DNA of 60,506 nt. Origin: a virus (taxonomy: Duplodnaviria; Caudoviricetes). Positions 2,648 through 42,975 of the stretch are shown here, in pieces. The notes beneath the pieces were generated by a model. The model was not told the origin of the DNA. It did no database searches and saw only the letters and a program-made list of their open reading frames with translations. Position numbers and translations under genes: made by a program. The number at the start of each line of letters is the position of its first letter. Position 1 is the stretch's first letter. The stretch lies in IMG/VR virus record IMGVR_UViG_3300010412_000013, positions 1 to 60,506 of that record; one strand, 5' to 3'.

Positions 2648-3376
2648 ATGGGATGGCATGATTTACAAATAGATAATTCGCTTATTGAAACCATAGTGAA
2701 TCTGATGGAAGCGGGTGGTTCAGGAATGTTCATGGTTCATAAGACACCACTGGACAAAGCAAAGGCAATGGCACAGAAAGTTCTTGGAGACAAGTTCGAT
2801 GAAATATTTCCAGACTTTGATAGCAGATATGAAAGTCTTGCATCATCTATCAAGAAATACTCTAAGGGCATTAAGAGAATTGATATGCCTGTCATCAATG
2901 CTGACCAGATTGCCAAATTTGATGATGACCTGAAGAAAGGAAGGGTTGACCTGTTTGCCCCATTCGCCAAAGGGAAATATGTAACACCAGACCACTTGGA
3001 TGATATCAATGCAGGTGAAGCATGGATTGAACTTGGTCTGAAAGATGGCAACAAGAACGATGATGTCGTAAAAGGAAAGTTGACAAAACTGCAAGCCGAC
3101 AAACTGAAGCCAATCCAGACAGAAATCCACTTTGATAAAATAACAGAGACCGCCAAGAAGTTTGGCAAGATGACCGATGGTTCTCCACCCACCAAGCTGA
3201 CGATTATTGTATCTGCCGACAACTATATCATCGATGGACACCACCGTTGGGGTCTTGCATTAATGACAAACCCTACCGTGAAACTACAGGCACTTGTTGT
3301 TCCATTGAAAATCGACAAGCTGCTTGAACTTACCCGTAACTATGGTGATGCCATAGGAAATGAACGTAACGCATAA
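2648..3376 (+). CDS. ParB/Srx-like domain protein with WH-type leader
   Basis: LKPIQ...IIVSADNYIIDGHHRW is the ParB-N/sulfiredoxin signature. Confidence 0.7.
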   Translation: MGWHDLQIDNSLIETIVNLMEAGGSGMFMVHKTPLDKAKAMAQKVLGDKFDEIFPDFDSRYESLASSIKKYSKGIKRIDMPVINADQIAKFDDDLKKGRVDLFAPFAKGKYVTPDHLDDINAGEAWIELGLKDGNKNDDVVKGKLTKLQADKLKPIQTEIHFDKITETAKKFGKMTDGSPPTKLTIIVSADNYIIDGHHRWGLALMTNPTVKLQALVVPLKIDKLLELTRNYGDAIGNERNA

Positions 3377-3386
3377 GAGAATAGCC

Positions 3387-3632
3387 ATGAATACACCAAG
3401 AGAATTTACACCACCAAAATTTTGTCCAGATGCTGTTGCATCAAACGCCGGTTGGTTGAACCCAAGGGATAATAGTCTAATTGTTCCCAATCGCGGATTG
3501 GCTACAAGGATGGCTGAATGGAAAGCCAGACAAAAGCAGGAAAAGGAACCTGAAGTTATAAATACCGTTGAGCAGGTTGTGGATGAACCAAAACCAAAAA
3601 GACAACCAAGAAAAACCAAAAAGAACTCTTAA
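3387..3632 (+). CDS. Small hypothetical protein
   Basis: Tightly packed ORF; P-x-F-x-P-DA...GWLNP motif recalled from T4-like small proteins; basic tail. Confidence 0.5.
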   Translation: MNTPREFTPPKFCPDAVASNAGWLNPRDNSLIVPNRGLATRMAEWKARQKQEKEPEVINTVEQVVDEPKPKRQPRKTKKNS

Positions 3633-3644
3633 GGAGAGTTGAAA

Positions 3645-3917
3645 ATGTTGCACATCACAGAATTACTGAGACTGAAATCCGGATACGAGAATGCCATTGC
3701 GAAAGGAAGAGGCAACTCAGCTATGGAAGAGAAACTGGATAAGGTTCTTGCGCTTATCGAAAAGCACGACAAGATTGTAGCCGAAAAAAAAGCCAAGAAA
3801 AATCGTGTTGCTGAAGCACCTTCTGAAGAATCCTTCGTCGTTGAATCTGCCGAAGAATCTGAAGTTGAAGCCTCGGATTCTCCAAAGCCAAAGAAGACAA
3901 GTAAGAAGAAAGACTGA
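3645..3917 (+). CDS. Hypothetical charged protein
   Basis: AAGGAG RBS upstream; stop overlaps next start (TGATG). Confidence 0.55.
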   Translation: MLHITELLRLKSGYENAIAKGRGNSAMEEKLDKVLALIEKHDKIVAEKKAKKNRVAEAPSEESFVVESAEESEVEASDSPKPKKTSKKKD

Positions 3918-4333
3918 TGATTCGTTTTGGTGAATTCAGGGAATCCTTGCTGTCTGAGGAAAACGACCCATTTATTACCCAACAGGATTTGATAAATCTT
4001 GAGAAGATGCTCGACAATTTGTATAGCAAGTTGGGTATAGATGTTGAATTCACCAAACACTTCCTTGATAGGGTCAACGACATTCGTAACGTGACCCAAA
4101 TCAGGTTGAGTGAATTATCAAACCTCTTTAAAAAAGAGTTTCTGAAATTTGGTGATGTTTTGGCTGATATTAAGGATGGGGTTGAGGCAGTTTTGTTTGA
4201 TGTATCATCCAATATTAATATACCGTTTGTAATGAAATGGAATCCACACACAAAAGAAATGGAACTTGTGGCAAAAACTGTCATGAGAAAGAAAAATTTC
4301 TTGACACAAAATAAACGCTATACAGTAAGATAA
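3917..4333 (+). CDS. Conserved phage protein, possible BECR/RelE-like RNase fold, with capsid-targeting-like leader
   Basis: MIRFGEF..LLSE leader; VEFTKHFLDRVNDxRN and terminal VAKTVMRKKNF resemble BECR-fold proteins. Confidence 0.4.
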   Translation: MIRFGEFRESLLSEENDPFITQQDLINLEKMLDNLYSKLGIDVEFTKHFLDRVNDIRNVTQIRLSELSNLFKKEFLKFGDVLADIKDGVEAVLFDVSSNINIPFVMKWNPHTKEMELVAKTVMRKKNFLTQNKRYTVR

Positions 4334-4670: not shown

Positions 4671-7196
4671 ATGAGCAAAAAAACATTCTTTGACTTCGAT
4701 AATAACCTGACAGAAAATTACAGGCTGAAGAACATGTTCGGTGGTCTGAACATGGGTTCTCAGGCGGTTGATGACGGAAACTCTGACCACTTCTATATTG
4801 GTTGGGCAAATGAACTGAGAAGGTTGAATGCATTTATTGGTGCAATTGCCCGTGGTCGTTATATTGACCCCGATTCTGTTATTGCCAACCTTCGCACAAA
4901 ACTGTTTGTTATGGGGATAGTATTTGACCCAGTATCCATTGGTGACCAAGAAGAAGGTCAACACTTCCTACCATTAAGGCAATATGAAGGCATCCGCAGG
5001 AATACTGAAACCGGCGATATTGAAGAAGTGAACTACCTTGATGAAGCATTCCCTAATGGTGTTTATTTGCACCTAAACTGGTATCCCGACGAAACCGGAA
5101 TGACCAAGTTGTCCGGTAAGATTATTACTGGTGAAGAGCTTGACAGGATGGCACAAGACGACGAAGAGCTTGCTGCTGCCCTTTCTGAAAGCATGATTGA
5201 AGAAGAATGTGGTTGTGATGATGATGAAGAAGAAGACGGTATGGAAGATGATATGGAAGACGGAATGGAAGATGATGATGACCTGACAGAATCCGCATTA
5301 AGTGTTTACAGAGCAATCGACAATCACCCAAAGAAGAAAATCAGCGAACTGCCAAAAGAACAACAAGCAAAGGCGGCTACACTGGTTAAACAAATGAAAG
5401 ACAACCAGAAGTCTGGCGACCCAGAAAAGACCGTTGTTGCCTATCAGAACGACAAGGGTAAGATTGGTGTATACACAATCAACAGCCAACAACTGAAGAA
5501 CATGCTTTTGAGCAAGTCTGGATTCGTGTTGACTGAAGACGTTATTAACGAATCATTCAAACTCAAGCAAAAGGTTGTTGATAAAAAGACTGGTGATACT
5601 GGTGTTATTGCTGAAGTTGGTAAAGGAAAACTGAAAGGCGTATATTTGATTGTTTGGGATAATAGCAAGAAAGGCGTATCAAGTCGAAATGAAGATGAAA
5701 TAAAAGCTGATGGCAGTATTAAAGAAGGATTGACATCATTCTCAATGTTCAATGAAGCCCAGAAAACTGGTGGCGATAAGGCTTACCAAGAATTCTTGGC
5801 TAAGAAATTGAAATCTATGGGATATGAAACCATCAAGGATATTCCCGATGATGAAAAGGATGACTTCTTCAATTCTGTTGATAAGGAATGGAAAGCCGAT
5901 GATGAAGGGGATTCAATGAATGAAGCCGTGATGTTCAAGAGCCTTGGTTCTGATGAATACGACATTATCAGCAAAGGGAAATCTGTTGGAAGAATTCGTA
6001 AAAAGACCGGCAGCTTTGAAGCCGACTATATGATTGGTAAGCAAAGGATGATTCATCACACAGGTTCAGGTTCTTCGCTGAAAACCGTAGATGATTTGAA
6101 AAAAGTCGTAACAAAGAATCTGGTCAAAAACCTGACCGAAGCTGCCGTTTCAGCAAACCCAATTTCATTCAAAGTCAAGAAAAAACTTGATAATCTTGGT
6201 AGTGTTACTAAAATTGATATCAAGGCAAATAAAGTGACCATGATTGGTTGGGATAAGCCAGAGAGCCTTTCGGTTGCTGTTGGAGTAACTCCAAAGTCAG
6301 TAGAAATTTTGACCAAGGGAACCAAGAAGATTCAACGTGCTGTCTATGCAGACGGTTCTGTTCTTGAAGTTTCTGTTGGTGCAGACCCACTGATGAGTAA
6401 AACTGTTGGTGTTGGTGTTGATGATGATTGGGTTGGAATCAAAGCCATGGCACCCATGAAAGAAGAAGTGGGTGACAAGGAAGAATACCAGAAGAAGGTT
6501 AAAAAGGCACTGAAAGATGCCGGATATGATTCCATCAAGGATATTCCTGATGATGAAAAGGATGACTTCTTCAACAAGCTGGATTCAATGCACGTTTCCG
6601 ATGATGAAGAAGCCGGAATCTCTGAAGGATTTAAACCAAGCCTTGCTTCGAGTGGAGACGAAACTGACATACTCGTCAATGGAAAGAAGATTGGAAAAAT
6701 CCACAAACTTCCTGATGGAAGATATGAAGCAGTTTACAAAATGAATGGCGTTGAATTGAAGCAACACACAGGAACCGGAGCATTGTCACTGAAGACAGTA
6801 AATGACCTGAAGAAATTTGTGATGAACAACATTCAAAAAAATATGAATGAAGAAACCGAAGGCACAGAAAGAAGCCTGATGGATTTGCTTGCAGAAGCAT
6901 CACAGGTTGAAGCGTCTGTCTGGAAAGACATTGAAAAATTGTCAAAGATGACCGACAGAAATGATAAGACCGGTGCAGCAATACATGGTGCAAAAACACT
7001 GATGAAACAGGCATCACCAGAGCAAGTAAAGGAATTGAAGCGCCTACAAGGTCGTTTTGAACACTATCATGGAATGGAAAATGGAATGAATGGTATGCAA
7101 TCAAAGGATTTCCAAGGATTGGTTACTATATTGTGGCAAAAAGCGAAAGAAGTTCTTCCAGACAAATTGGCAAAAGCATTCAAGGATGCATTCTAA
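4671..7196 (+). CDS. 841-aa modular acidic protein, putative prohead-protease-processed internal head polyprotein
   Basis: Two duplicated internal modules; many (L/I/M)xE sites at module junctions; acidic EDGMED tract. Confidence 0.5.
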   Translation: MSKKTFFDFDNNLTENYRLKNMFGGLNMGSQAVDDGNSDHFYIGWANELRRLNAFIGAIARGRYIDPDSVIANLRTKLFVMGIVFDPVSIGDQEEGQHFLPLRQYEGIRRNTETGDIEEVNYLDEAFPNGVYLHLNWYPDETGMTKLSGKIITGEELDRMAQDDEELAAALSESMIEEECGCDDDEEEDGMEDDMEDGMEDDDDLTESALSVYRAIDNHPKKKISELPKEQQAKAATLVKQMKDNQKSGDPEKTVVAYQNDKGKIGVYTINSQQLKNMLLSKSGFVLTEDVINESFKLKQKVVDKKTGDTGVIAEVGKGKLKGVYLIVWDNSKKGVSSRNEDEIKADGSIKEGLTSFSMFNEAQKTGGDKAYQEFLAKKLKSMGYETIKDIPDDEKDDFFNSVDKEWKADDEGDSMNEAVMFKSLGSDEYDIISKGKSVGRIRKKTGSFEADYMIGKQRMIHHTGSGSSLKTVDDLKKVVTKNLVKNLTEAAVSANPISFKVKKKLDNLGSVTKIDIKANKVTMIGWDKPESLSVAVGVTPKSVEILTKGTKKIQRAVYADGSVLEVSVGADPLMSKTVGVGVDDDWVGIKAMAPMKEEVGDKEEYQKKVKKALKDAGYDSIKDIPDDEKDDFFNKLDSMHVSDDEEAGISEGFKPSLASSGDETDILVNGKKIGKIHKLPDGRYEAVYKMNGVELKQHTGTGALSLKTVNDLKKFVMNNIQKNMNEETEGTERSLMDLLAEASQVEASVWKDIEKLSKMTDRNDKTGAAIHGAKTLMKQASPEQVKELKRLQGRFEHYHGMENGMNGMQSKDFQGLVTILWQKAKEVLPDKLAKAFKDAF
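5830..6574 (+). repeat. Internal direct repeat (43 bp, 1 mismatch; 5830-5872 and 6532-6574) encoding IKDIPDDEKDDFFN
   Basis: ccatcaaggatattcc(c/t)gatgatgaaaaggatgacttcttcaa seen twice, 702 bp apart. Confidence 0.9.
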
Positions 7197-20317: not shown

Positions 20318-20689
20318 ATGAGCCTTTTTAACCAGAAAGATAAATTCATTCTTGAACAGGCGGTCTATCGTGCCGCCGATGTTCATGTGCCCGAATACAA
20401 TGGTGGTCAGTGGCTATGGCATGAAGACTTTGGCTGGTGGGAACCTGTTTTCGATGGCAAGGTCAAGGTCGAAGGTCTGAACAATTACTACTCAGGCGAA
20501 ATGGATGCCAAGACACTTGGTCTGGCATTGTCTACCCTGTTGCAGAACCACCTGTCATGGAAGTATGCCGAAGAAGGTGGCTTTGATGAAAGCCAGCGTT
20601 GGAGCGAACACTTCTATTCATTGCGTAATCACGCGATGGAAGTTCTGAATGATGACCAGTTGTCAGAATACTTTGCGTTTCTTGATTGA
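20318..20689 (+). CDS. ArdB/KlcA-family antirestriction protein
   Basis: EYNGGQW, NYYSGEMDA..LGLA, FYxLRxHA, terminal LD match the ArdB/KlcA pattern. Confidence 0.7.
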   Translation: MSLFNQKDKFILEQAVYRAADVHVPEYNGGQWLWHEDFGWWEPVFDGKVKVEGLNNYYSGEMDAKTLGLALSTLLQNHLSWKYAEEGGFDESQRWSEHFYSLRNHAMEVLNDDQLSEYFAFLD

Positions 20690-27388: not shown

Positions 27389-28372
27389 ATGCAAGAGTTC
27401 AACGACTTCAATCTATTACAAGAGGGGATTTCGCCCCTCTTGTTCCATATTACGAGCATAAAAAGCCTCTACGAAATGCTGAGTGGAGACAGGCTTTTCT
27501 TGCGCCCGTTGCTGAGGTCAATGGCAGACACTGTGGCTGACCCGTCAGGAATCTCGTCTACCGGAAAGGGTAAGGTTGAAAAGCTGTTCTTCCTGTCTAC
27601 TGCAAGAACCATGCATAGCCAGTACATCGACAGTTCATTCGACCGCTCCCGTGCCCATGTGGTTCTGGAACTGGATGGCAGGCTTCTGTCTACCCGTTAT
27701 TCCGGCAATCCCCTGGACTATTGGGGAAAAGACTTCCGCAACATGCTCAGTGGCAAGTATGAACAGGAAGACAGGATTTACCATACAGAACCCTATATCC
27801 CAAATGCCACAAAGTATATCAAGGCAATTCATATCCACATGCCCCAGACATACATTGACAAGCAGCTAAAAGAAAACGATAACATGAAGAAATTCATATC
27901 GGGTTCATTGCTTGTCGCCAAGAGAAAGGGCGTACCTGTACACTTCTACAATGACAAGGCAACCTTCTTTTCGAGAAGGAATCCGGTCAACTTTGACGTG
28001 TCGGCACTGAAAAGAACCGTTGAACCCTTCTCAAGTTCGATATACCGAGAAGACAGGAATAACACAGTTCTTGTGGCGAGGGGTCTTGCCCGATTCATGA
28101 CCGAGGTCGAGGATGTCAAGACCATGGACAAGGTTCTGGATGAACCCACAAAGAAATGGCTCAGGAACAACATGTTCAAGACAAGGGGGGATTTGGGTCA
28201 AACCGTACAAATCCTGTTCAACGACTTGTCGGATGTCTCAATTTCTACTGACGCCAGCCGAGATGCTGCAAAGCAGTTGGCAAAGGTCATGAGTAAGTAT
28301 CACATGAGAAGCCCTTCTGATTTTGGGGAACTTATCATTAACAAATACATTAAACTAACCAGAGGCATATAA
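27389..28372 (+). CDS. Putative ADP-ribosyltransferase-like virion protein
   Basis: MQEFNDF.LLQE leader; LFHIT...FLSTAR...VVLELDG...YEQEDRI (H, S-T, ExE motifs). Confidence 0.45.
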   Translation: MQEFNDFNLLQEGISPLLFHITSIKSLYEMLSGDRLFLRPLLRSMADTVADPSGISSTGKGKVEKLFFLSTARTMHSQYIDSSFDRSRAHVVLELDGRLLSTRYSGNPLDYWGKDFRNMLSGKYEQEDRIYHTEPYIPNATKYIKAIHIHMPQTYIDKQLKENDNMKKFISGSLLVAKRKGVPVHFYNDKATFFSRRNPVNFDVSALKRTVEPFSSSIYREDRNNTVLVARGLARFMTEVEDVKTMDKVLDEPTKKWLRNNMFKTRGDLGQTVQILFNDLSDVSISTDASRDAAKQLAKVMSKYHMRSPSDFGELIINKYIKLTRGI

Positions 28373-29299: not shown

Positions 29300-30058
29300 A
29301 TGCAATCATTTATCCAACACACACAACTCGATGAAGCCCTTTCAAAGGTCACTTATGAGCAATATACCGCCATCATGGAAGGAAGGCTTGATGAAGGCAT
29401 TATTGATTTTGCCGTTGGTCTGAAGAAAGACATAGCCAAGGTGTTTGCTGAATTTAAGGATGAAATCCAGAAACTGATTCAGGAATTTGGTGATGAAGCC
29501 AAGGATATTGCCAAGGGATTTGCCACCAAGAAGATGTTCTACATTTTCAGGGCATTCAAGTTCAGTGTGAAAGCCATGACAGCTATCTTGGTGAAGGTTG
29601 CCGGTCTGTGGAGAGAAAGCCTTGGTGCCATATTCGAGGAAATGGCAAAGAGTGGTATCATGAAAAAAATACAAAGTGGTGCCATGAAGATTGACGAGGT
29701 TCTTGCCAAGTACCCCATCCTGAAAAAAATAAGTGGTCCACTGGTTGCCGGTCTACTGATTTATATCTGGCTGAACATGTCATTTATTGGCGACCCGCAA
29801 TATGACCTTGACTTCATGTCTGTGTTCGGTGCGCTTGGTGGAAATTTTTCACTGGCTGACCTGTTCACTGGAAAATCCGGATTGATGTTGATTACATTGT
29901 TTAGTACAGGCGGATTTATATCTGCACCATGGTTGGGCAATACTGCTGCAAATATTGTGTTGGCATTGATGTATACCGCACTTACTGCCTACAAGAAAAA
30001 TCATCCGGTGGCTGTAAGGCTACGCAACAAACTGAAAATGGTGAGGGTGAGAGCATGA
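29300..30058 (+). CDS. Leader-bearing protein with hydrophobic multi-helix C-terminus
   Basis: MQSFIQH..LDE leader; about three hydrophobic Gly-rich helices at the C-terminus. Confidence 0.55.
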   Translation: MQSFIQHTQLDEALSKVTYEQYTAIMEGRLDEGIIDFAVGLKKDIAKVFAEFKDEIQKLIQEFGDEAKDIAKGFATKKMFYIFRAFKFSVKAMTAILVKVAGLWRESLGAIFEEMAKSGIMKKIQSGAMKIDEVLAKYPILKKISGPLVAGLLIYIWLNMSFIGDPQYDLDFMSVFGALGGNFSLADLFTGKSGLMLITLFSTGGFISAPWLGNTAANIVLALMYTALTAYKKNHPVAVRLRNKLKMVRVRA

Positions 30059-31116
30059 AAAATTTTTCTGATATGTCAAAGGTCATTACCGAAAAGCGTT
30101 CACATTCTGATGTGAACCAGAGAACGTCTTTGTCGCATGAGTTTATGAAGGTCATCGATAACAACAATATCTATATTCACTTTTCAAACAAGAACATTAT
30201 TGGTGTTACAGCTAACCCTGATTACAATACACCTGCCGGTGTCTATGCATGGCAGTTGAATTCCTACAAGAAGGAAATAAAAGACAGGATTGCCGATAGT
30301 GTACATGATGCAAATAAAACGCTACAAAGAATTGATTCTGGTGAGTATGTTATCGATTCCCTTCCTGCAAAAATAGCATTCGAAAACACCAAACGAACTG
30401 CTGCCGGTCATGACATCTCGGTAAACATCGTGTTCCCTTACAGAGGCGATGCCAAATTTGTTCACATACTGGAAGCCAAGTCTGGTCTGAGGTGGTTTAG
30501 GTTAGGAAGTTCAGAGAGACTTTCTAGGCAGGAATTCTATAAAAACATGGAGATTCTTGAAACCTTCATACTGAATAATCCAACATATTCAAGCCTGTTC
30601 ACTGTGGGTGACATGTCAGACTTTGTGGATTTTCTTGAATCGTCCGAAAATGAACTAGACCACTACAATAACTTCTTTGCAAAAACTTATTACAATATGA
30701 GTATGGTCAGGAAAGAGGTTGACCGTGGCGCAGATGAAGCCAAGAGATGGTATTTGAGGCTGAATTATTTTGGTGCATTTGCTACATACAATCCATTTTC
30801 AAACAGAAGCATATTACTCTACTCACTGATTAATAGAATGAACAATTTTCTTCCTGAAGGCAGACAGGCTAACATGAAGAATGTGATTTTCAGGGAGATG
30901 GGTTATGATGCCATCCGTGATGATGGTTCAGGCGTTATATTCAATTGGGATGAACGCCATCAAGTTGTGTTCCTACACTCAGGCGCGTACAAGGTAAAAA
31001 CCATGCTTCCCAATACCGACATTTCAAGAAGCGAGAGGCATGAGTTATTTGGAAGGGGCAAGTCGAGACCAAAAGGCGAAAAGGGTTCTGGTGTAGGAGT
31101 AATTAATAAACCATGA
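30055..31116 (+). CDS. Paralog 1 of 4: ART-like putative virion protein
   Basis: Start reassigned to ATGA overlap (MKNFSD..ITEKR); YIHFS, TPxGVYxWQL, GYDAIRDDG, ExxQVVFL. Confidence 0.6.
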   Translation: MKNFSDMSKVITEKRSHSDVNQRTSLSHEFMKVIDNNNIYIHFSNKNIIGVTANPDYNTPAGVYAWQLNSYKKEIKDRIADSVHDANKTLQRIDSGEYVIDSLPAKIAFENTKRTAAGHDISVNIVFPYRGDAKFVHILEAKSGLRWFRLGSSERLSRQEFYKNMEILETFILNNPTYSSLFTVGDMSDFVDFLESSENELDHYNNFFAKTYYNMSMVRKEVDRGADEAKRWYLRLNYFGAFATYNPFSNRSILLYSLINRMNNFLPEGRQANMKNVIFREMGYDAIRDDGSGVIFNWDERHQVVFLHSGAYKVKTMLPNTDISRSERHELFGRGKSRPKGEKGSGVGVINKP

Positions 31117-32204
31117 AAAAATTTTCCGAAGTATCAAAAGAACTGAATGAGAAACGTGCCCATGCCGACATGAATCCCAAGGAAAGTGTTGTCAAGTATT
31201 TGCTGGACAATCTGAATAACAACAACGTTTACATTCACTTCTCGAATATCGAAAAGGTAGGAATCAATCCAAACACAAAATGGGCAACACCCATTGGTGT
31301 CTATGGATGGCAGTTGAACTACTACAAGAAAAAACTCATTCAGAATGTCGAAGACGTTAAAAATATTGCTGTCGATTTTTTCAAGGAATATAAACTGACA
31401 CCCAATTCAACACAGGCTGAGGTTGAAGCAAAGGGAATAGACTGGAAGAACTTTGTCTCTGCCGTGGGAATGTTGAATGGCACTTCTGGGGTTAAACTGG
31501 CTCGCGTATTTCCCTTCATGACTGAAGCAAAGTATATGCACGTTATCGAAGCCAAGTCAGGTCTCAAGTGGTTAAGGATTGGTGATTCAAGAACCAGTGA
31601 TAAGGAAGTTATGGATGGAGTGAAGATATTGGAAATGTTCATCCTTAAAGAAAGTGACAAGACAGTAGAAAACATGACTGGTCATAAGCTGGATGGCAGT
31701 TCAAACTATATGCGACTATTCAGGGAATCTGACTTTCCCGCACTCAAAAAGTGGTTCGGCTTATCTGAAGAAAAAATCAAAACAACTCTTGAAAGGCTAC
31801 AGAATAATCCGAATCCAGCCGAAATGAAGCCTTGGCTTGCCAGAGCCATAATCACTGATGTGATGGCACTACATACAACGAAAGATGGAAATGCCAAGTT
31901 CCTGTTTCAGTTGGTCAATGACATTTCAATGAATTTGGTAAAATCTCGCTTGCAGGCAGGCATCATGAAAACGACCATATACAGGGCTATGGGTTACGAT
32001 GCTATCCGCGATGATGGTACTGGTACATTCTATAGCATGAATGAGCCTGCCCAAGTGGTATTCCTGCACCCGAATGCCTACACGGTCAGGAAGACACTAA
32101 ATAATGATTCGGTTGAGAGAGAAAAGCGTAAAGCCCTTTTCGGTTTCGATTCCCAGACAAAAGCAGATTCATTTAAAAAAGCAAAATTCGAAAGCAGTTG
32201 GTAA
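31113..32204 (+). CDS. Paralog 2 of 4: ART-like putative virion protein
   Basis: MKKFSE..LNEKRAH; same conserved blocks. Confidence 0.6.
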   Translation: MKKFSEVSKELNEKRAHADMNPKESVVKYLLDNLNNNNVYIHFSNIEKVGINPNTKWATPIGVYGWQLNYYKKKLIQNVEDVKNIAVDFFKEYKLTPNSTQAEVEAKGIDWKNFVSAVGMLNGTSGVKLARVFPFMTEAKYMHVIEAKSGLKWLRIGDSRTSDKEVMDGVKILEMFILKESDKTVENMTGHKLDGSSNYMRLFRESDFPALKKWFGLSEEKIKTTLERLQNNPNPAEMKPWLARAIITDVMALHTTKDGNAKFLFQLVNDISMNLVKSRLQAGIMKTTIYRAMGYDAIRDDGTGTFYSMNEPAQVVFLHPNAYTVRKTLNNDSVEREKRKALFGFDSQTKADSFKKAKFESSW

Positions 32205-32207
32205 GTA

Positions 32208-33236
32208 ATGAAAAAGTTTTCAGAACTCACAAAGGTATTATCAGAGAAACGTGCCCATGCCGACATGAATGAAAAGGAATGGGTTGCCAAATATCTGATG
32301 GATAACATCAACAACAATAACCTGTACCTTCACTTCTCGAACATCAACAAGGTCGGCATCAAGCCAAGAAACGAATGGGATACGCCTCAAGGTGTCTATG
32401 GATGGCAGTTGAATGCATACAAGAAAACCATCAAGAAAATAGTCAGTGACGTGTCTGCTGATGCAAAGCAGACTATGGGTCAAAAAACCTACTTTGATAC
32501 CATGAATGACAAGGAGAAATACCTAACAACACAAAGAGCCAAGGGCGATGGAAGCGGAGTTTTTCTTACTGGTGTATTTCCATTCAGGGATGATTCCACC
32601 TACCTTCATGTGATTGAAGCCAAGTCTGGTCTCAGGTGGCTGAAACTTCATGGTGGAAACCACACACTTGATGACTTTCTGGACATCCTGAATGCCATCG
32701 AGATATATTGGTCACATAACGCAGACACTATGGGTTACATGAGAAGGGAAATGAATGCAGACAGAACTCCTGTTTATAAATTCACCCAAGAACAAATTTC
32801 CATGATGAAAAGGTACTACCAGCTTGACGACAGCGAAATACAGAAGGTCATTGAAAAGTTATATGACGAATACAAGACAAACAAACAAAGCCAGCTTTCT
32901 ACTATATGGTATTTCAGAAAAGAGTATATAATGTATTACATCTATAGCTATATGAATCGAGGTAATGCTTTTTCTGTTGGTGCTTATATGCTACTCAAAA
33001 TTGTTTGCAAAAAGCTATCAAGAAATGACGCACAGGTTGCCATTTCGATGAATGCCATCCTACGCGCCGCCGGTTTTGATGCGGTTCGTGATGATGGTGA
33101 AGGAATCCTGTTCAATGATGACGAGAGTAATCAGGTTGTGTTCCTACACGCAGGCGCGTACACGGTCAAGAAAACTTTGCTCAATACGTCACTGCCCCGT
33201 AGCACCAGAGCCAAAGTGTTTGGTAAGGGAGCATAA
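32208..33236 (+). CDS. Paralog 3 of 4: ART-like putative virion protein
   Basis: MKKFSE..LSEKRAH; same conserved blocks. Confidence 0.6.
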   Translation: MKKFSELTKVLSEKRAHADMNEKEWVAKYLMDNINNNNLYLHFSNINKVGIKPRNEWDTPQGVYGWQLNAYKKTIKKIVSDVSADAKQTMGQKTYFDTMNDKEKYLTTQRAKGDGSGVFLTGVFPFRDDSTYLHVIEAKSGLRWLKLHGGNHTLDDFLDILNAIEIYWSHNADTMGYMRREMNADRTPVYKFTQEQISMMKRYYQLDDSEIQKVIEKLYDEYKTNKQSQLSTIWYFRKEYIMYYIYSYMNRGNAFSVGAYMLLKIVCKKLSRNDAQVAISMNAILRAAGFDAVRDDGEGILFNDDESNQVVFLHAGAYTVKKTLLNTSLPRSTRAKVFGKGA

Positions 33237-33237
33237 T

Positions 33238-34395
33238 ATGCAATTCAAAGAATTCCCCAACCTTATGGAAAAACGCGCACACAGTGAACTCAATCCAAAA
33301 GATTGGGTGGCAAAGAATATCATGGATGTCATTGACAACAACAATATCTATATCCATTTTGGAAACATTGAAAAAGTTGGTATTGACCCAGTAACACAAT
33401 GGGAAACTCCAAATGGTGTCTATGCATGGCAGTTGAACGCATACAAGAAAAAGATAAAGGAAAGGGTTGCGGATTATAAGAATGCTGCCATAAAAACTCT
33501 TGGTGGATATGGTTTAAGTGAAAAATCCACTACTGCCGAAATTATGGCAGTATTGAAACAGGTTCCTGAAAACAATAGGGTTCTTGTTAATGCGCTGAAT
33601 ACTATCAGGGGGGATGGTACGGGTGTTAGTATAATGAACATCTTTCCATTCAGGGATGATTCCAAATATGTGCATATACTCGAAGCCAAGTCCGGCTTGA
33701 AGTGGCTGAAACTGTATAAGGGAAATGCTTCGATGGCTGACCTTAAACATGCCTGCGAAACACTTGAAATGTATCTGTTGAATTCAAACAAAGACATTTC
33801 CAAGGTAATTTCGTTTGACGTGTTTTCAGTTCTATCTGACGATAAAGAGGTTTTTGGCAAGAAGGTTTCATTTGACCAAAATGAAATGTCTTGGGTAAAA
33901 ATGATTTATGGTATTGATAATAAACATATCAAGGCAGTATTGAACACAATTGATAAAGGAAATGATTCAAAACTTGAGAGACTGTGGTATGTCAGGAAGC
34001 TGGTTGTCAATGTTGCCGAATATGTTGGTTATGACAGAAGCAATATCAATAAGGTGATTTACCATATTGTTGAAAGGGTTGCGCGTAGACTTGATACCAA
34101 TGACGCAAAGAGAGCCGCGATTAAAACGGTTCTGTTCAGAGCTATGGGATATGATGCCATCCGTGATGATGGTGGAGGCATTCTTTATAATTCTGGTGAA
34201 CCATCACAGGTCGTGTTCCTAACACCCAATTCATATATCGTCAAGAAGACGATGAACAATGATTCGTTGTCTAGGCTGAAACGTCAGGAGTGGTTCGGCT
34301 ATGATAGCCAGACCGGACAAGATTCTACCCAGAAGTTTGAGAACTCCCATGTGACGACAGCAAAGCTGGGTAAACCAGTGAAGGCATTCCAGTAA
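33238..34395 (+). CDS. Paralog 4 of 4: ART-like putative virion protein
   Basis: Start reassigned (GGGAG RBS; MQFKEF..LMEKRAH); same conserved blocks. Confidence 0.6.
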   Translation: MQFKEFPNLMEKRAHSELNPKDWVAKNIMDVIDNNNIYIHFGNIEKVGIDPVTQWETPNGVYAWQLNAYKKKIKERVADYKNAAIKTLGGYGLSEKSTTAEIMAVLKQVPENNRVLVNALNTIRGDGTGVSIMNIFPFRDDSKYVHILEAKSGLKWLKLYKGNASMADLKHACETLEMYLLNSNKDISKVISFDVFSVLSDDKEVFGKKVSFDQNEMSWVKMIYGIDNKHIKAVLNTIDKGNDSKLERLWYVRKLVVNVAEYVGYDRSNINKVIYHIVERVARRLDTNDAKRAAIKTVLFRAMGYDAIRDDGGGILYNSGEPSQVVFLTPNSYIVKKTMNNDSLSRLKRQEWFGYDSQTGQDSTQKFENSHVTTAKLGKPVKAFQ

Positions 34396-39039: not shown

Positions 39040-39227
39040 GCTAACAGGTAACTATTGGGATGGCAAGACTTTTGATGACGCCATCATAAAAGACCTGATA
39101 TTTCCTAACTCATTGTCTAGGAACAGGCATTTCGATTCTATCTGGCATCCTGTCATAATGGACTACATTTCATTTGACAATCGTGTCTGGCATCCTGTAG
39201 AATAAACGAAAATCAGAGGGCTAATGT

Positions 39228-39623
39228 ATGGCAAAGGTTATCATTGCTGGTGGTCGTGACTTCAATAGCATGAAAGTTCTTGAAGCCACAATGAAATATG
39301 TGATGGCACCTGATGGTGAAAATATTCAGGTTGATGAAGTCATTACTGGTTGTGCCGTTGGTGCCGATACGCTTGGCATGAAATGGGCAGAAGCCAATGG
39401 AATACCTGTGACCAAGATGCCAGCCTCTTGGAAGGAACATGGCAAGAAAGCTGGTATCATGAGAAACCTGCAAATGGCTCATGAGGGCGATGTTCTTGTC
39501 GCTTTCTGGGATACAAAATCGAAGGGAACTGGTCACATGATAAGCATTGCCCAGAAGAAGGGATTGAAGGTTATTGTGAGACAATACAACCTGCCGGAAA
39601 AGGCAAGGTGCATGGGTGTTTGA
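39228..39623 (+). CDS. SLOG-superfamily (YspA/DUF2493-like) protein
   Basis: IIAGGRDF, GCAxGAD, AGxxRNxQM, AFWDxxSKGT. Confidence 0.85.
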   Translation: MAKVIIAGGRDFNSMKVLEATMKYVMAPDGENIQVDEVITGCAVGADTLGMKWAEANGIPVTKMPASWKEHGKKAGIMRNLQMAHEGDVLVAFWDTKSKGTGHMISIAQKKGLKVIVRQYNLPEKARCMGV

Positions 39624-40741
39624 TGTACAAGCCATATTTCATGAAGGATGTGCATGACGCATCCGCACAAAACAAATTCACTGTCATATCGACATTCGCT
39701 GGTGGGGGAGGTTCCTCTACCGGCTATCGTCTTGCTGGCGGAAAACTGCTGTGTGTGAATGAATTTGTGCCAGAAGCCATTGCCACCTATCATGCCAACT
39801 ATCCAGACACACCAATACTGTCAGGCGATTTTAGGGAACTGAAAGCCGAAGACTTCCTGAATGCTGCTGGCATATCAGTAGGTGAGCTTGACATCCTTGA
39901 CGGTTCGCCTCCCTGCATGGCATTCACAGAGAACAATGGTGGAGGCTACAAGCAATGGGGAAAAGACAAGAACTACAGTGATGTGACACTGACCAATGCC
40001 GAAGACCTTTTCTTTGACTTCCTTGCCATGGCAGACCAACTGAAACCGAAGGTTATCATTGCCGAGAATGTCAGGGGCATAGGCAAGAGCCAACACAAGC
40101 ATTACTTCAACCGTATCCTGAACACCATGTCAGACATCGGCTATGTGCCGACAGCCAAGATGCTGGATGCATCTTACTTTGGTGTTCCACAATCAAGGCT
40201 GAGGTATTTCTTTGTCGGTATTCGAAAAGACATCGCTGCCGAGAAAGGCATCAACCGAATGAACATTGCCAAGAGGGTCTACCCGAAAGAGAATGACACC
40301 CAGACTGTTGTTGGTGATGCGATTCGAGACCTGATGACAGACCCGCAGAATATCCTTGATGGTGAATACCTTGAATCCAAGATGAAAACCATGTCGAAGT
40401 ATGAGTGGGTCAAGCAATTCAAGGGTGACAAGGTTGACAGACCAATAAAGATGTCTGAGATACACCCGAAAGGAAGTTTCTGGAACACAACAAGACTGTT
40501 ATGGAACTATCCTTGCTGGACAATCACCCAGACAGGATTGACCGAAGGATTGCAGACACATCTTCATCCAGAATATGACCGTGGCATTACCTTGATGGAA
40601 TCCAAGCGAATTATGAGCCTGCCTGATGACTATATCCTGACAGGCAAGCTGAACCAGCAATATGAAAGGGTTGGCAGGATGGTTGCCCCACTGCAAATGA
40701 AAGCCTTGGCTGAAAACATTTATGAGAAGGTGTTGAAATGA
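39623..40741 (+). CDS. C5-cytosine DNA methyltransferase family (possibly carboxymethyltransferase)
   Basis: FAGGGG motif I, GSPPC motif IV, ENV motif VI, QSRxR motif VIII; motif X reads GRMV instead of GNxV. Confidence 0.9.
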   Translation: MYKPYFMKDVHDASAQNKFTVISTFAGGGGSSTGYRLAGGKLLCVNEFVPEAIATYHANYPDTPILSGDFRELKAEDFLNAAGISVGELDILDGSPPCMAFTENNGGGYKQWGKDKNYSDVTLTNAEDLFFDFLAMADQLKPKVIIAENVRGIGKSQHKHYFNRILNTMSDIGYVPTAKMLDASYFGVPQSRLRYFFVGIRKDIAAEKGINRMNIAKRVYPKENDTQTVVGDAIRDLMTDPQNILDGEYLESKMKTMSKYEWVKQFKGDKVDRPIKMSEIHPKGSFWNTTRLLWNYPCWTITQTGLTEGLQTHLHPEYDRGITLMESKRIMSLPDDYILTGKLNQQYERVGRMVAPLQMKALAENIYEKVLK

Positions 40742-41451
40742 GATTTACTTTTGCCAATGAACCCGAAGGATTCGATGTACATATCAACAATTCGATTCGA
40801 GGCTATAGCGAACTCTGGACAGATGTTGTAAAGATGTCTGACTATTTCGTCTCTGAGGAATCGTTAATAATTGACATCGGATGTTCGACAGGCAAGATGC
40901 TGGTTGCCATGGCTGAAAGGGCACATGACAAAAATCTTGACCCAGTACATTGTTTGGGATTTGAGGTTGAAGAAGACTTCAGGCAACCGCTTGCAGATAA
41001 TTTCCTGAATTCGACAATCAATACTTCTGATGCGGTAACACTTGGGGTGAAGATGGAAGATATTGCCAATTTTGATTTTAGCAAATTGCCCTATGGCATA
41101 TCCTATGCCACTTCCATATTTACCTTGCAGTTCATCCAGAAGGAAAAACGCCAGAAGATTATCAGAGAAATCTACAATAACATGAAAGTCGGTGGTGCCT
41201 TTGTCTTTGCTGAAAAGGTCTATTCACCTAACGCCCAATTGCAGGATGTGATGACCTTCATGCATTATGACCATAAGTCAAAGAACTTTTCTGCTGAAGA
41301 AATACTAAATAAGGAAAGAACCCTGAGAAATATGCTGAGACCCAACACCCGTGAAGAATTGGAAGACATGATTGGAAAGGCAGGTTTCACATCGGTTCAA
41401 CCATTCTGGCAGAACTATAATTTTGTCGGGTATATCTGCATAAAGACCTGA
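40738..41451 (+). CDS. cmoA: CmoA-like carboxy-SAM synthase / class I SAM-dependent enzyme
   Basis: FDxHIxxSIRGY, DIGCSTG, FTLQF, AEK, FWQNYNF parallel CmoA blocks. Confidence 0.75.
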   Translation: MRFTFANEPEGFDVHINNSIRGYSELWTDVVKMSDYFVSEESLIIDIGCSTGKMLVAMAERAHDKNLDPVHCLGFEVEEDFRQPLADNFLNSTINTSDAVTLGVKMEDIANFDFSKLPYGISYATSIFTLQFIQKEKRQKIIREIYNNMKVGGAFVFAEKVYSPNAQLQDVMTFMHYDHKSKNFSAEEILNKERTLRNMLRPNTREELEDMIGKAGFTSVQPFWQNYNFVGYICIKT

Positions 41452-41466
41452 CAAGGGAAAAAACCA

Positions 41467-42420
41467 ATGAAAACAGTATTGTCAATAGATGGCGGTGGAA
41501 TAAAAGGAATAATCGCTGCATTGGCATTGGAAGAAATTGAGAGGCAAATAGGAAAGCCCATTTCAGACTGCTTCGACCTTATATGTGGAGTAAGCACAGG
41601 CGGAATCATTGCCTCAATACTGACCATACCTGATGACGACGGAAGACCAAAATATAAAGCCAGTGATGTCGTCAAGTTTTACAGGGAAGAGGGAAGGAGA
41701 ATATTCAGGAAGCGTTCGAAAATCCCGTTCTACTATCTGTTCAAATCAAAATATCGCCATTCGAGACTGAAGGATGCAATCCGTTCAAGGATAGGTGACC
41801 TTCCATTCAATCACCTGACAAACAGGGTCATGATACCCTGCTATGACCTGATAGAGAGAAGACCCTATTTCTTCAAGAACTGGTATCCTGATATTATTAA
41901 TGTGGCTACATACCAAGTAGCGACAGCCACTTCAAGTGCCCCAACCTACTTTGACCCACAGATATGCAACATGGGAAATGGTTCCACTAGGAAACTTCTT
42001 GTTGATGGTTCTGTTGCTGTCAATAACCCAACCGCCTGCGCGTATGCGGAAGCCAAGCGTCTCTGGGGCAATGAAGAGATTTTTGTGGTGTCAATAGGAA
42101 CCGGTGACGTGACAGACCCTATCGAGAATCAGAAGAGGTGGGGATTCCTTAATTGGTATCCAGAAGTCATTGAGGTTCTTGTTGATGCCCCAACCAATAC
42201 AGTAGACTATCAATTGAGGAACATGATACCAAGACACTATGTCAGGTTCCAGAACAAGATAAACTACTCTTCCGAAAAACTGGATGATGTGTCATTCAGG
42301 AACATAAGAAGGCTATTGACTGAAGGGAAGTCCTTTGTGGAATCGGATTACCACAAATACACTTTCACCATCACTGCACTAAAAAAACGATTGAAGGAAA
42401 AGACTGATGAAAAGGTTTAG
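41467..42420 (+). CDS. Patatin-like phospholipase
   Basis: LSIDGGG, GVSTG, SAPTYF, DGS..NNP, SIGTG. Confidence 0.9.
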   Translation: MKTVLSIDGGGIKGIIAALALEEIERQIGKPISDCFDLICGVSTGGIIASILTIPDDDGRPKYKASDVVKFYREEGRRIFRKRSKIPFYYLFKSKYRHSRLKDAIRSRIGDLPFNHLTNRVMIPCYDLIERRPYFFKNWYPDIINVATYQVATATSSAPTYFDPQICNMGNGSTRKLLVDGSVAVNNPTACAYAEAKRLWGNEEIFVVSIGTGDVTDPIENQKRWGFLNWYPEVIEVLVDAPTNTVDYQLRNMIPRHYVRFQNKINYSSEKLDDVSFRNIRRLLTEGKSFVESDYHKYTFTITALKKRLKEKTDEKV

Positions 42421-42622
42421 TCTATTGATTGTTATGTGTTGCTCCCTGACTGGCTGTGGAATATTTCCGGAAGAAGCCAGTGGAGAAGTTCATGATGTCT
42501 GTATCGTTGGATATAAATACAGGGTAAATATCTATCCCAACATGAAGGTCATATCATCGGCAAGACCCATCGTGGATAGTTATGGTAACATGATAACCTG
42601 CGTTACCAACTGGACTGATTAA
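42407..42622 (+). CDS. Small lipoprotein
   Basis: Lipobox LTGC. Confidence 0.6.
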   Translation: MKRFSLLIVMCCSLTGCGIFPEEASGEVHDVCIVGYKYRVNIYPNMKVISSARPIVDSYGNMITCVTNWTD

Positions 42623-42975
42623 TGGTTGACAATGACATGGAATTCAGTAGAATAGTCAGAAACCTAATCAAAAATAACATGAGAGACCATATTATGTTTT
42701 CTGTGGTAGAACCCATAAGCGACCATGCTCAAATGACGAAAAATATCATTCTTGAAAAATTCCCAAGCCAACAACAGTTCTCGTTGATGATAGAGGATAT
42801 GGCTAAGGAACTCAACCAAACCTATGTAGACACAATAGTCTACTATTGTGAGAAGAATGAAATCGACATTGAATCCGTATCAAAACTTATCAATCCCACG
42901 CTCAAAGACAAGATTCAGATTGAATATGAAAATCTGAACATGCTCCCCAAGAAACCCAAACTGAAAAAACACTGA
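42622..42975 (+). CDS. gp33: Late transcription co-activator gp33 (alternative start 42694)
   Basis: FSxxIE...YxDxIxxYCExNxIxxE...LKxKIxxE..NLN.L; synteny 33-59-32. Confidence 0.85.
   Translation: MVDNDMEFSRIVRNLIKNNMRDHIMFSVVEPISDHAQMTKNIILEKFPSQQQFSLMIEDMAKELNQTYVDTIVYYCEKNEIDIESVSKLINPTLKDKIQIEYENLNMLPKKPKLKKH

Follow-up and report, generated by a model that had tools for sequence, protein, structure and literature searches.

A two-gene CmoX–CmoA module in an uncultured, deep-branching T4-like phage, with 5-carboxymethylcytosine as its probable end product

Introduction

The closest described system is the CmoA/CmoX/CmoY set of Synechococcus phage S-B43 (Yang et al., Nat Commun 2025, PMC12783734; structure 8YF3). 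[quoted passage not shown] The cytosine-C5 DNA carboxymethyltransferase SpCmoX has GC as its target motif. Its Cx-SAM-binding and catalytic residues are given as F25, E47, F48, D69, SPPC with C98, and R350. R350 contacts the carboxylate of Cx-SAM: the wild-type enzyme takes Cx-SAM only, and the R350N variant accepts neither cofactor. The third component, CmoY, is an ATP-dependent amide ligase that acts on 5-carboxymethylcytosine and resembles Asn synthetase. The virion DNA of S-B43 is reported to contain 5-glycylcarboxymethylcytosine (5gcxmC) and none of the free 5-carboxymethylcytosine (5cxmC).

Other enzymes share parts of this chemistry. Engineered M.MpeI N374K, as cited in PMC12783734, is a C5 methyltransferase (MTase) that uses Cx-SAM and has a basic residue in place of the motif X Asn. 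M.MedI of Mycoplasmopsis edwardii occurs naturally and is reported to carboxymethylate cytosine in DNA; it is a bacterial, CG-specific MTase (PMC12015181). In Escherichia coli, CmoA belongs to the tRNA cmo5U pathway, where CmoB is the acceptor enzyme. The reported SAM contacts of CmoA are Y39, D62, G64, S66, D89, D117, N132 and F137 (PMC3663124).

Here we analyse a stretch of phage DNA of 60,506 nucleotides (the window, which is the whole of one uncultured virus record in IMG/VR). An initial annotation had proposed that a C5 MTase and a CmoA-like enzyme together write 5cxmC into the DNA of this phage. It had also mentioned a similar natural pair reported in a cyanophage. This is correct, and the phage is S-B43 (PMC12783734).

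Results

Gene order and coupling

The two genes lie in a short block on one strand (Table 1). Judged by the alignment with SpCmoX, the CmoX gene starts at ATG 39623 rather than at GTG 39608. This start shares one base with the stop codon of the preceding DUF2493 gene (TGATG, 39621–39625). The ATGA overlap with CmoA that the initial annotation had seen is present: the CmoA start codon occupies 40738–40740 and the CmoX stop codon 40739–40741. CmoX and CmoA are translationally coupled. Both open reading frames are full length and free of frameshifts. After the promoter match in front of the block, the next one of equal quality lies at 42626–42653, and there is no strong terminator-like site on the plus strand between the two.

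Table 1. Features of the CmoX–CmoA block (positions in the window).
Feature	Position	Strand	Evidence and remarks
Sigma-70-like promoter match	39174..39203	+	TTGACA, 18 nt, TAGAAT; 11/12; consensus match only; 25 nt ahead of the DUF2493 gene, which opens the block
DUF2493 / YAcAr SLOG-family protein, 131 aa	39228..39623	+	PF10686 E 4.6e-13; phrog_289
CmoX, cytosine-C5 DNA carboxymethyltransferase homologue, 372 aa	39623..40741	+	PF00145 E 1e-51; 8YF3 E 2.8e-98
CmoA, carboxy-S-adenosyl-L-methionine synthase homologue, 237 aa	40738..41451	+	TIGR00740 E 6.6e-28; 4GEK E 4.4e-18
Patatin-like phospholipase, CBASS CapV effector-like, 317 aa	41467..42420	+	PF01734 8.7e-21

The arrangement recurs in related loci. 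We kept 80 relatives of the MTase from IMG/VR, and CmoA is found in 76 of these loci. In all 76 the order is the same as here, with CmoA downstream of the MTase, and in 75 of them CmoA lies within 60 nt of CmoX. All 80 relatives carry the motif X Arg described below. Because the Arg is universal and CmoA nearly so, the pairing of an Arg-type MTase with CmoA is not due to chance.

Two further genes share the putative transcription unit. The DUF2493/SLOG gene is probably outside the modification chemistry. As a new tailoring enzyme replacing CmoY it is an unlikely candidate: the family is found in 1165 phage records of many unrelated hosts, has no solved relative and adjoins CmoX in none of the 80 related loci. 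The patatin-like gene starts 15 nt after CmoA. Its protein scores 189.4 bits on NF041079 (cut-off 200) and matches the PADLOC phospholipase effector PDLC00758 (2.5e-64). Such a gene is found in none of the 80 related CmoX loci, and we regard it as a neighbour outside the modification system. A CBASS partner was sought for it as well; among the 16 proteins scanned, PADLOC matched nothing besides the lipase itself.

The Arg-type methyltransferase homologue

The MTase homologue aligns with crystallised SpCmoX over residues 3–371 of its 372, at 50% identity. It contains motifs I (FAGGGG), IV (GSPPC, with C98), VI (ENV), VIII (QSRLR) and X (GRMV, with R352). All the SpCmoX residues listed above have their equivalents, namely F25, E47, F48, D69, S95-P96-P97-C98 and R352. 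The E of ENV and the R of RxR, which contact the cytosine in SpCmoX, are kept too. Motif X reads ERVGRMVAP, and its first seven residues are identical in SpCmoX. R352 stands at the canonical Asn position (HhaI N304, SpCmoX R350), so the replacement of Asn by Arg in the initial annotation is confirmed. The cofactor, catalytic and cytosine-contact residues, motif X Arg included, are invariant in all 80 IMG/VR relatives.

Among the phage MTase homologues that we compared, the motif X Arg occurs together with a CmoA gene in the loci of S-B43, S-CRM01, PaBG and TurkishDelight. Two control MTases lack the Arg: that of Aphanizomenon phage CL131 has GNCV, with Asn, and that of Melnitz has Leu at this position. 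No CmoA is annotated in either control locus, and neither genus is among those named in our CmoA tblastn tally. The engineered M.MpeI N374K carries Lys and derives from a bacterial enzyme with CG specificity; in contrast, the window encodes a natural Arg enzyme that would have its own supply of Cx-SAM.

The enzyme is not equally conserved throughout. Its N-terminal catalytic core (residues 1–204) is 54–64% identical to that of relatives. The target-recognition domain (approximately residues 205–318) is only 19–32% identical to those of 82 relatives, which among themselves share at least 35% in every pair. When compared to SpCmoX, 27 of 101 positions in this domain are identical. Because the domain is such an outlier, neither GC specificity nor even efficient DNA binding can be assumed, and this CmoX may modify a motif other than the GC known from S-B43. 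We considered GGCC as a target and rejected it. M.HaeIII is the best structure match outside CmoX, yet the two align only in the catalytic core and in motifs IX–X, leaving the recognition domain outside, and GGCC is absent from the contig.

The carboxy-SAM synthase homologue

The partner is CmoA-like, as the initial annotation had it: its best family match is TIGR00740 and its best solved-structure match is E. coli CmoA (4GEK). The best match among isolates is the CmoA of S-B43, with 44.9% identity over 99% of the length (tblastn, E 3e-55); in our alignment, identity to SpCmoA is 46%. The TIGR00740 score of 98 bits is below the NCBI cut-off of 193.3. However, the active SpCmoA (115.6 bits) and the proteins of S-CRM01 (119.1) and PaBG (130.5) also miss this cut-off. 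Hence, the cut-off is tuned to bacterial CmoA.

The AlphaFold model of the protein has a pLDDT of 92.1 and a pTM of 0.90. Its top six Foldseek matches are all CmoA chains (4GEK, 4IWN and 1IM8; TM 0.82–0.87). The next fold matches, the SAM enzymes CysG and BelI, score slightly lower. Since they rank so close behind, the fold alone is no proof of Cx-SAM synthesis.

Most of the SAM contacts of the E. coli enzyme are kept, as Y23, D46, G48, S50, D108 and F132. E. coli D89 is replaced by E76. E. coli N132 corresponds to I127 in the window, and to L or I in SpCmoA and S-CRM01.

One position deserves attention. In the E. coli enzyme Arg199 forms a salt bridge to the Cx-SAM carboxylate. The window reads KER where E. 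coli has K198-R199, an oddity that the initial annotation had noted. The reading itself is accurate: K192-E193-R194...R197 aligns with K198-R199...E203, so that E193 falls in the Arg199 column and an Arg, R197, follows four residues on. The concern that it raises is lifted because active SpCmoA carries Glu in the same column. At the two columns of E. coli R199 and E203, SpCmoA, S-CRM01 and all 120 of 120 metagenomic proteins, among which the window's own is counted, read E/R, and the proteins of E. coli, Erwinia, Alcaligenes and PaBG read R/E. In the alignment, KER is thus a clade-wide charge swap, from R199/E203 to E/R, and R197 may take over the role of Arg199. The main text of PMC12783734 does not mention this rearrangement.

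The E. coli enzyme is similar in fold (4GEK, 4IWN) and in most SAM contacts (PMC3663124), but differs in sequence (26% identity) and in the placement of this Arg, which comes one helical turn later in the window. The two pathways also differ in the acceptor enzyme, which in the window is a DNA C5 MTase homologue instead of CmoB.

The amide ligase

No amide ligase had been visible to the initial annotation, and our searches of the window agree. The SpCmoY query finds no CmoY homologue in the 60.5-kb record. With five CmoY-type queries (S-B43, PaBG, TurkishDelight, Erwinia and Staphylococcus phage), the best E in the window is 0.06. PF00733 has no match in the window and is positive in all 14 control genomes. 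The record that these searches cover amounts to about 27% of the genome (CheckV).

The position of the ligase in relatives is informative. In all 29 related loci that have one, the ligase gene immediately precedes CmoX in the same orientation, with a gap of at most 554 nt. In the window this slot is held by the DUF2493 protein. The slot carries no ligase, and therefore 5cxmC is probably the end product of the module.

Alternatively, 5cxmC could be an intermediate that is converted to an amide, for example 5gcxmC, by a ligase elsewhere in the genome or by an unrecognised enzyme of the window. This is the situation in S-B43, whose virion DNA carries the amide. Because the record is incomplete, the rest of the genome could indeed encode a ligase or a different tailoring enzyme, and the window itself has large open reading frames without family assignment (4671–7196, 27389–28372, 29929–31116, 31113–32204 and 33052–34395). 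However, both the negative ligase searches and the occupied slot argue against an intermediate. Furthermore, CmoX–CmoA pairs without a ligase are common: 45 of the 72 related loci with at least 1 kb upstream are of this kind, there is no ligase in the 12.7-kb locus of S-CRM01, and PMC12783734 counts 2,251 ligases against 5,615 candidate CmoX sequences. We consider further conversion to an amide rather unlikely and favour 5cxmC as the final mark.

Phage background and restriction sites

The phage is far from all isolates. Its gp32 is about 51–55% and a tail protein about 25–27% identical to any of them. A single-protein pattern scan of IMG/VR reveals no close relatives, and a 10-kb megablast query has no match among phage isolates. 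By sequence identity the module is a deep branch, as all its relatives stay at or below about 52%.

GATC and GGCC do not occur in the contig. AAGCTT and CTGCAG are absent like GGCC, and many 6-bp palindromes are avoided. In the k-mer statistics GATC, GGCC, CCWGG and CCSGG are avoided, and GCGC, CCGG, CGCG and TCGA occur at the expected frequency. As a pointer to the CmoX target these frequencies are suggestive at most. If every GC were already protected, the strong avoidance of sites that contain GC (GGCC, AAGCTT and CTGCAG, all zero) would be unexpected. An ArdA-like antirestriction domain is encoded at 20318–20689. We count the absence of GATC and GGCC, together with this domain, as a sign of restriction pressure, which supports a modification module.

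Discussion

We conclude, with good confidence, that the window carries a two-gene CmoX–CmoA DNA modification module of an uncultured, deep-branching T4-like phage, with 5cxmC as the probable end product. The initial proposal, a Cx-SAM synthase that feeds an Arg-type C5 carboxymethyltransferase, gains support, since full-length homologues of both S-B43 enzymes are present and the key residues are kept.

From these residues we infer the following mechanism. CmoA would convert SAM and host prephenate to carboxy-SAM. CmoX would then follow the usual C5-MTase mechanism, in which Cys98 attacks C6 and the ENV and RxR motifs hold the flipped cytosine. Arg352 would hold the carboxylate of the cofactor, and a carboxymethyl instead of a methyl group would be transferred onto C5. 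Phage DNA with 5cxmC would block restriction enzymes. The module probably stops at this point.

Could the MTase be an ordinary SAM-dependent m5C enzyme? The CmoA-like protein would then act separately, either feeding the host CmoB for tRNA cmo5U or draining SAM against SAM-dependent host defences. The CmoA homologue is under the NCBIfam cut-off and has no Arg199 at the aligned column, and SAM depletion is discussed in PMC12783734 as a potential secondary role. However, the E/R pattern equals that of active SpCmoA, and Arg352 sits at the position of R350 in SpCmoX, whose wild type is reported to refuse SAM (PMC12783734). Moreover, the two genes are translationally coupled and their pairing recurs in nearly all related loci. 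The 60.5-kb record contains neither a CmoB homologue nor tRNA genes, and we set a tRNA-modification role for this CmoA aside. An ordinary m5C enzyme is thus very unlikely.

A further reading, in which intact genes form a decaying or inactive module and the phage depends on ArdA and on the avoidance of sites instead, is scarcely credible: the avoided sites and the highly diverged target-recognition domain would fit, but both reading frames are full length, every catalytic and cofactor residue is kept, the core is conserved, and the genes have coupled start and stop codons and a promoter-like site upstream.

Preferring an active carboxymethylation module, we can place it among the described ones. 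This kind of system is already published for S-B43, and the window carries a new, divergent example. Both phages have a CmoA-type Cx-SAM synthase with the E/R pattern and an Arg-type C5 MTase homologue with the same key motifs. They differ in gene order, which is A-Y-X with CmoY in S-B43 and X-A with no ligase in the record here, and the window phage belongs to another, much more distant T4-like lineage. Synechococcus phage S-CRM01 is similar in having a ligase-less two-gene module with a GRMV MTase and an E/R-type CmoA. In contrast to the window, its order is A-X, and its proteins are 47% (CmoX) and 45% (CmoA) identical to ours. S-CRM01 is a freshwater cyanophage, and the GATC and GGCC counts in its locus are ordinary. 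Its pair is annotated as methyltransferases, and the phage's pair goes unnamed in the main text of PMC12783734.

A more specific picture is tentative, and we hold it with less than even confidence. Unamidated 5cxmC may be the final mark at a motif other than GC, layered on near-total restriction-site avoidance. At the same time, the phage-type CmoA clade may bind the carboxylate through an Arg moved by one helical turn, perhaps connected with the turnover of the phage enzyme, which is reported to be ten-fold higher.

As the system is already established, the locus extends its known range and brings no new principle. Still, a ligase-less pair that is about 50% diverged from the characterised one is well suited to the question of whether 5cxmC occurs unamidated as a terminal virion mark. 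The CmoA adds evidence that, in the phage clade, Arg is not required at position 199. The divergent target-recognition domain of CmoX may offer a new specificity for carboxymethyl DNA labelling, an application that the authors of PMC12783734 call for. Finally, with DNA modification, an ArdA-like protein and the complete avoidance of GATC and GGCC side by side, the phage would be a useful case for studying stacked anti-restriction strategies.

The CmoX-CmoA pair and the published system

The window carries a gene pair that very probably writes 5-carboxymethylcytosine (5cxmC). Such a system has been published for Synechococcus phage S-B43 (Yang et al., Nat Commun 2025, December 2025; PMC12783734). 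As described there, the phage CmoA makes carboxy-SAM (Cx-SAM) from SAM and prephenate. CmoX, a C5-methyltransferase homologue, puts the carboxymethyl group on cytosine C5 at GC motifs, and glycine is then added by CmoY, an Asn-synthetase-like ligase. In the 1.9 Å structure of the S-B43 enzyme SpCmoX (8YF3), the carboxymethyl group is contacted by R350, which stands in place of HhaI N304. Wild-type CmoX uses only Cx-SAM and R350N uses neither cofactor. E. coli CmoA has a kcat of 0.23 per s, and SpCmoA, the S-B43 Cx-SAM synthase, one of 2.33 per s. The paper also gives 5,615 CmoX, 4,257 CmoA and 2,251 ligase candidates in phage sequence collections. We found no further relevant literature on 'CmoX'.

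Judged by its sequence, the window pair is a divergent, ligase-less addition to this already published system. The initial annotation proposed that the pair writes carboxymethylcytosine, and homology and residue conservation to the S-B43 system support this. Both enzyme activities are predicted on these grounds. The details hold as first described: the CmoA ORF begins within the CmoX stop codon (ATGA), motif X of the methyltransferase (MTase) reads GRMV with R352 at the Asn position, and the partner is CmoA-like. Its nearest solved structures are those of E. coli and Haemophilus CmoA.

The two genes lie in a run of five (table), in which every junction is overlapping or tightly spaced. No strong terminator-like site was found between the two promoter-like matches. 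The patatin-like protein is close to CBASS CapV effectors (NF041079, 189 bits with a cut-off of 200; PADLOC phospholipase effector, 2.5e-64), and no cyclase was found among 16 proteins scanned. Its homologues among phage isolates are confined to Wolbachia phage WO records and two huge uncultured phages.

Features of the CmoX-CmoA region and the ArdA-like gene
Feature	Position	Strand	Remarks
ArdA-type antirestriction domain (ArdA-like)	20318-20689	+	PF03230, E 3.3e-06; second anti-restriction device on the contig
Sigma-70-like promoter match (11/12)	39174-39203		upstream of the SLOG-CmoX-CmoA-patatin-71-aa ORF run; consensus match only
DUF2493/YAcAr SLOG-family protein	39228-39623	+	translationally coupled to CmoX (TGATG)
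CmoX homologue	39623-40741	+	372 aa; C5 cytosine DNA methyltransferase homologue, PF00145, E 1e-51
CmoA homologue	40738-41451	+	237 aa; best family TIGR00740, E 6.6e-28
Patatin-like phospholipase	41467-42420	+	15 nt downstream of CmoA
71-aa ORF	42407-42622		lipoprotein-like N-terminus; overlaps the end of the patatin gene
Second promoter-like match	42626		consensus match only

CmoX and its recognition domain

The window MTase matches 8YF3 over residues 3-371 (E 2.8e-98). The next structures, HaeIII and HhaI, match at E 1e-21 or worse and over the catalytic core only. Identity is 50% to SpCmoX and 47% to the S-CRM01 homologue, and no IMG/VR relative exceeds 52% among the matches listed. In alignments the window enzyme keeps F25, E47, F48, D69, S95-P96-P97-C98, ENV (148-150), R192/R194 and G351-R352-M353-V354. 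A pattern scan of IMG/VR confirmed at least 504 relatives; in the 80 kept for comparison these cofactor and catalytic residues are invariant (80/80).

Two control MTases have another residue in motif X, GNCV in Aphanizomenon phage CL131 and GLMV in Methylophilales phage Melnitz, and their fetched loci have no annotated CmoA. The MTases of PaBG (GRSV) and TurkishDelight (GRAV) are accompanied by CmoA-like and Asn-synthase or amidotransferase genes. The CmoX-like MTase with Leu in motif X (GLMV), at 2866-4083 of the fetched Melnitz-3 locus, is 37% identical to the window enzyme. Moraxella phage Mcat8, a 40-kb temperate-type phage, encodes an MTase (2941-4011 of its locus) with 41% identity and the Arg form, GRMV. 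No Mcat8 protein appeared among the matches listed of the CmoA homologue search. By analogy with SpCmoX in E. coli, this MTase could draw Cx-SAM from the host CmoA.

Conservation is uneven along the window CmoX. Its N-terminal catalytic core (residues 1-204) is 54-64% identical to 82 relatives. Residues 205-318, the recognition domain, reach only 19-32% (median 25%), while all pairs among the 82 relatives are at least 35% identical over this stretch (median 54%). The target-recognition domain thus appears as an outlier, and because of this it should not be assumed that the window enzyme shares the GC specificity of SpCmoX.

CmoA and the Arg199 column

Among isolates, the window CmoA is best matched by its counterparts in S-B43, S-B05 and RB11-B (44.9% identity, E 3e-55). 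Apart from the window's own protein, BLASTP against 5.8 billion clustered proteins returned no CmoA relative above 51% identity. By these comparisons the window CmoA and CmoX form a singleton branch. The window CmoA scores 98 bits, below the NCBIfam cut-off of 193.3 (E. coli CmoA, 455). The active SpCmoA fails too (115.6), so the phage clade simply lies outside the reach of this cut-off. The AlphaFold model (pLDDT 92.1) has CmoA structures as its best fold matches (TM 0.82-0.87).

Byrne et al. (PMC3663124) list the E. coli CmoA residues that contact the SAM derivative and point to Arg199 as the one that binds its carboxylate. Y39, D62, G64, S66, D117 and F137 are conserved in the window protein; D89 is replaced by Glu and N132 by Ile. 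As first noted, K192-E193-R194 (KER) falls at the E. coli K198-R199 column. Hence the Arg199 column holds Glu (E193), and the column of E. coli E203 holds Arg (R197). R194 is not the conserved basic residue, because its position is variable and most often Val.

The 199/203 columns fall cleanly into two states: R/E in the proteins of E. coli, Erwinia phage, Alcaligenes phage and PaBG, and E/R in SpCmoA, S-CRM01, the window and each of the 119 other metagenomic relatives retrieved. Staphylococcus phage F1 CmoA has Q/R. Between a phage-type clade and bacterial-type phage CmoAs, the two charges appear to have been swapped across one helical turn. In the model residues 186-197 form a single helix, so that residues 193 and 197 point to the same side. 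We infer that the carboxylate is bound by R197 instead. The main text of PMC12783734 contains neither 'Arg-199' nor 'R199'. As the E/R form includes the fast SpCmoA, Glu in the Arg199 column is no argument against activity.

A pair probably without amide ligase

The initial annotation saw no amide ligase in the window, and the searches agree: neither SpCmoY, the S-B43 ligase, nor Pfam Asn_synthase (positive in 14/14 control genomes) has a match there, and five diverse CmoY-type queries reach E 0.06 at best. A ligase match occurs in 29 of 80 related loci, always immediately 5' of CmoX and in the same orientation (28 loci within 93 nt, one at 554 nt). In the window this slot holds the DUF2493/SLOG protein, whose family is a generic phage gene (1165 phage records) that adjoins CmoX in 0/80 related loci; the protein has no solved relative. 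Ligase-less loci are common (45 of 72 with at least 1 kb of upstream sequence), and the 12.7-kb S-CRM01 locus has no ligase. Empty searches, the occupied slot and the ligase-less relatives together make a ligase-less pair with 5cxmC as its end product most likely. The record is linear and covers about 27% of the genome (CheckV estimate), and a distant ligase could lie in the remainder.

The phage and its restriction sites

The window spans a whole IMG/VR virus record (60,506 bases) and comes from a T4-like myovirus. It encodes a gp59 helicase loader, gp32, a late-transcription coactivator, baseplate and tail-tube proteins, primase, thymidylate synthase, a class II-like ribonucleotide reductase and PhoH. 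The phage has no close isolate: megablast with 10 kb of the window gave zero matches. Its gp32 is 51-55% identical to those of Stenotrophomonas phage DLP6 and cyanophages, and a tail protein reaches just 25-27% to anything. Large plus-strand ORFs (395, 363, 447 and 841 aa; 29929-34395 and 4671-7196) have no Pfam or PHROG match even at lax thresholds. Two adjacent plus-strand genes (34-1416 and 1420-2310) match the PHROG cytidyltransferase families phrog_3041 and phrog_395, with no Pfam match at E 1e-4. They possibly serve nucleotide-sugar or other nucleotidyl chemistry, and we saw no tie to cytosine modification.

Several restriction sites are depleted. Under a second-order Markov model about 223 GATC and 179 GGCC are expected (274 ± 15 and 129 ± 11 in shuffles), and neither occurs. 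CCSGG (CCCGG/CCGGG) is absent versus 30 expected, and CCWGG (CCAGG/CCTGG) occurs 4 times versus 128. AAGCTT and CTGCAG are missing, as are 35 of the 64 six-base palindromes in total. GCGC, CCGG, CGCG and TCGA have the expected frequency. The avoidance is specific to this phage, as the S-B43 locus (58 GATC in 12.7 kb) and the S-CRM01 locus do not have it.

Since GC-containing sites are among those avoided, the modification would not be the sole, or not a complete, protection. The site avoidance points to a host with many type II restriction systems. Evidently the phage faces strong restriction pressure, in keeping with an anti-restriction role of the modification.
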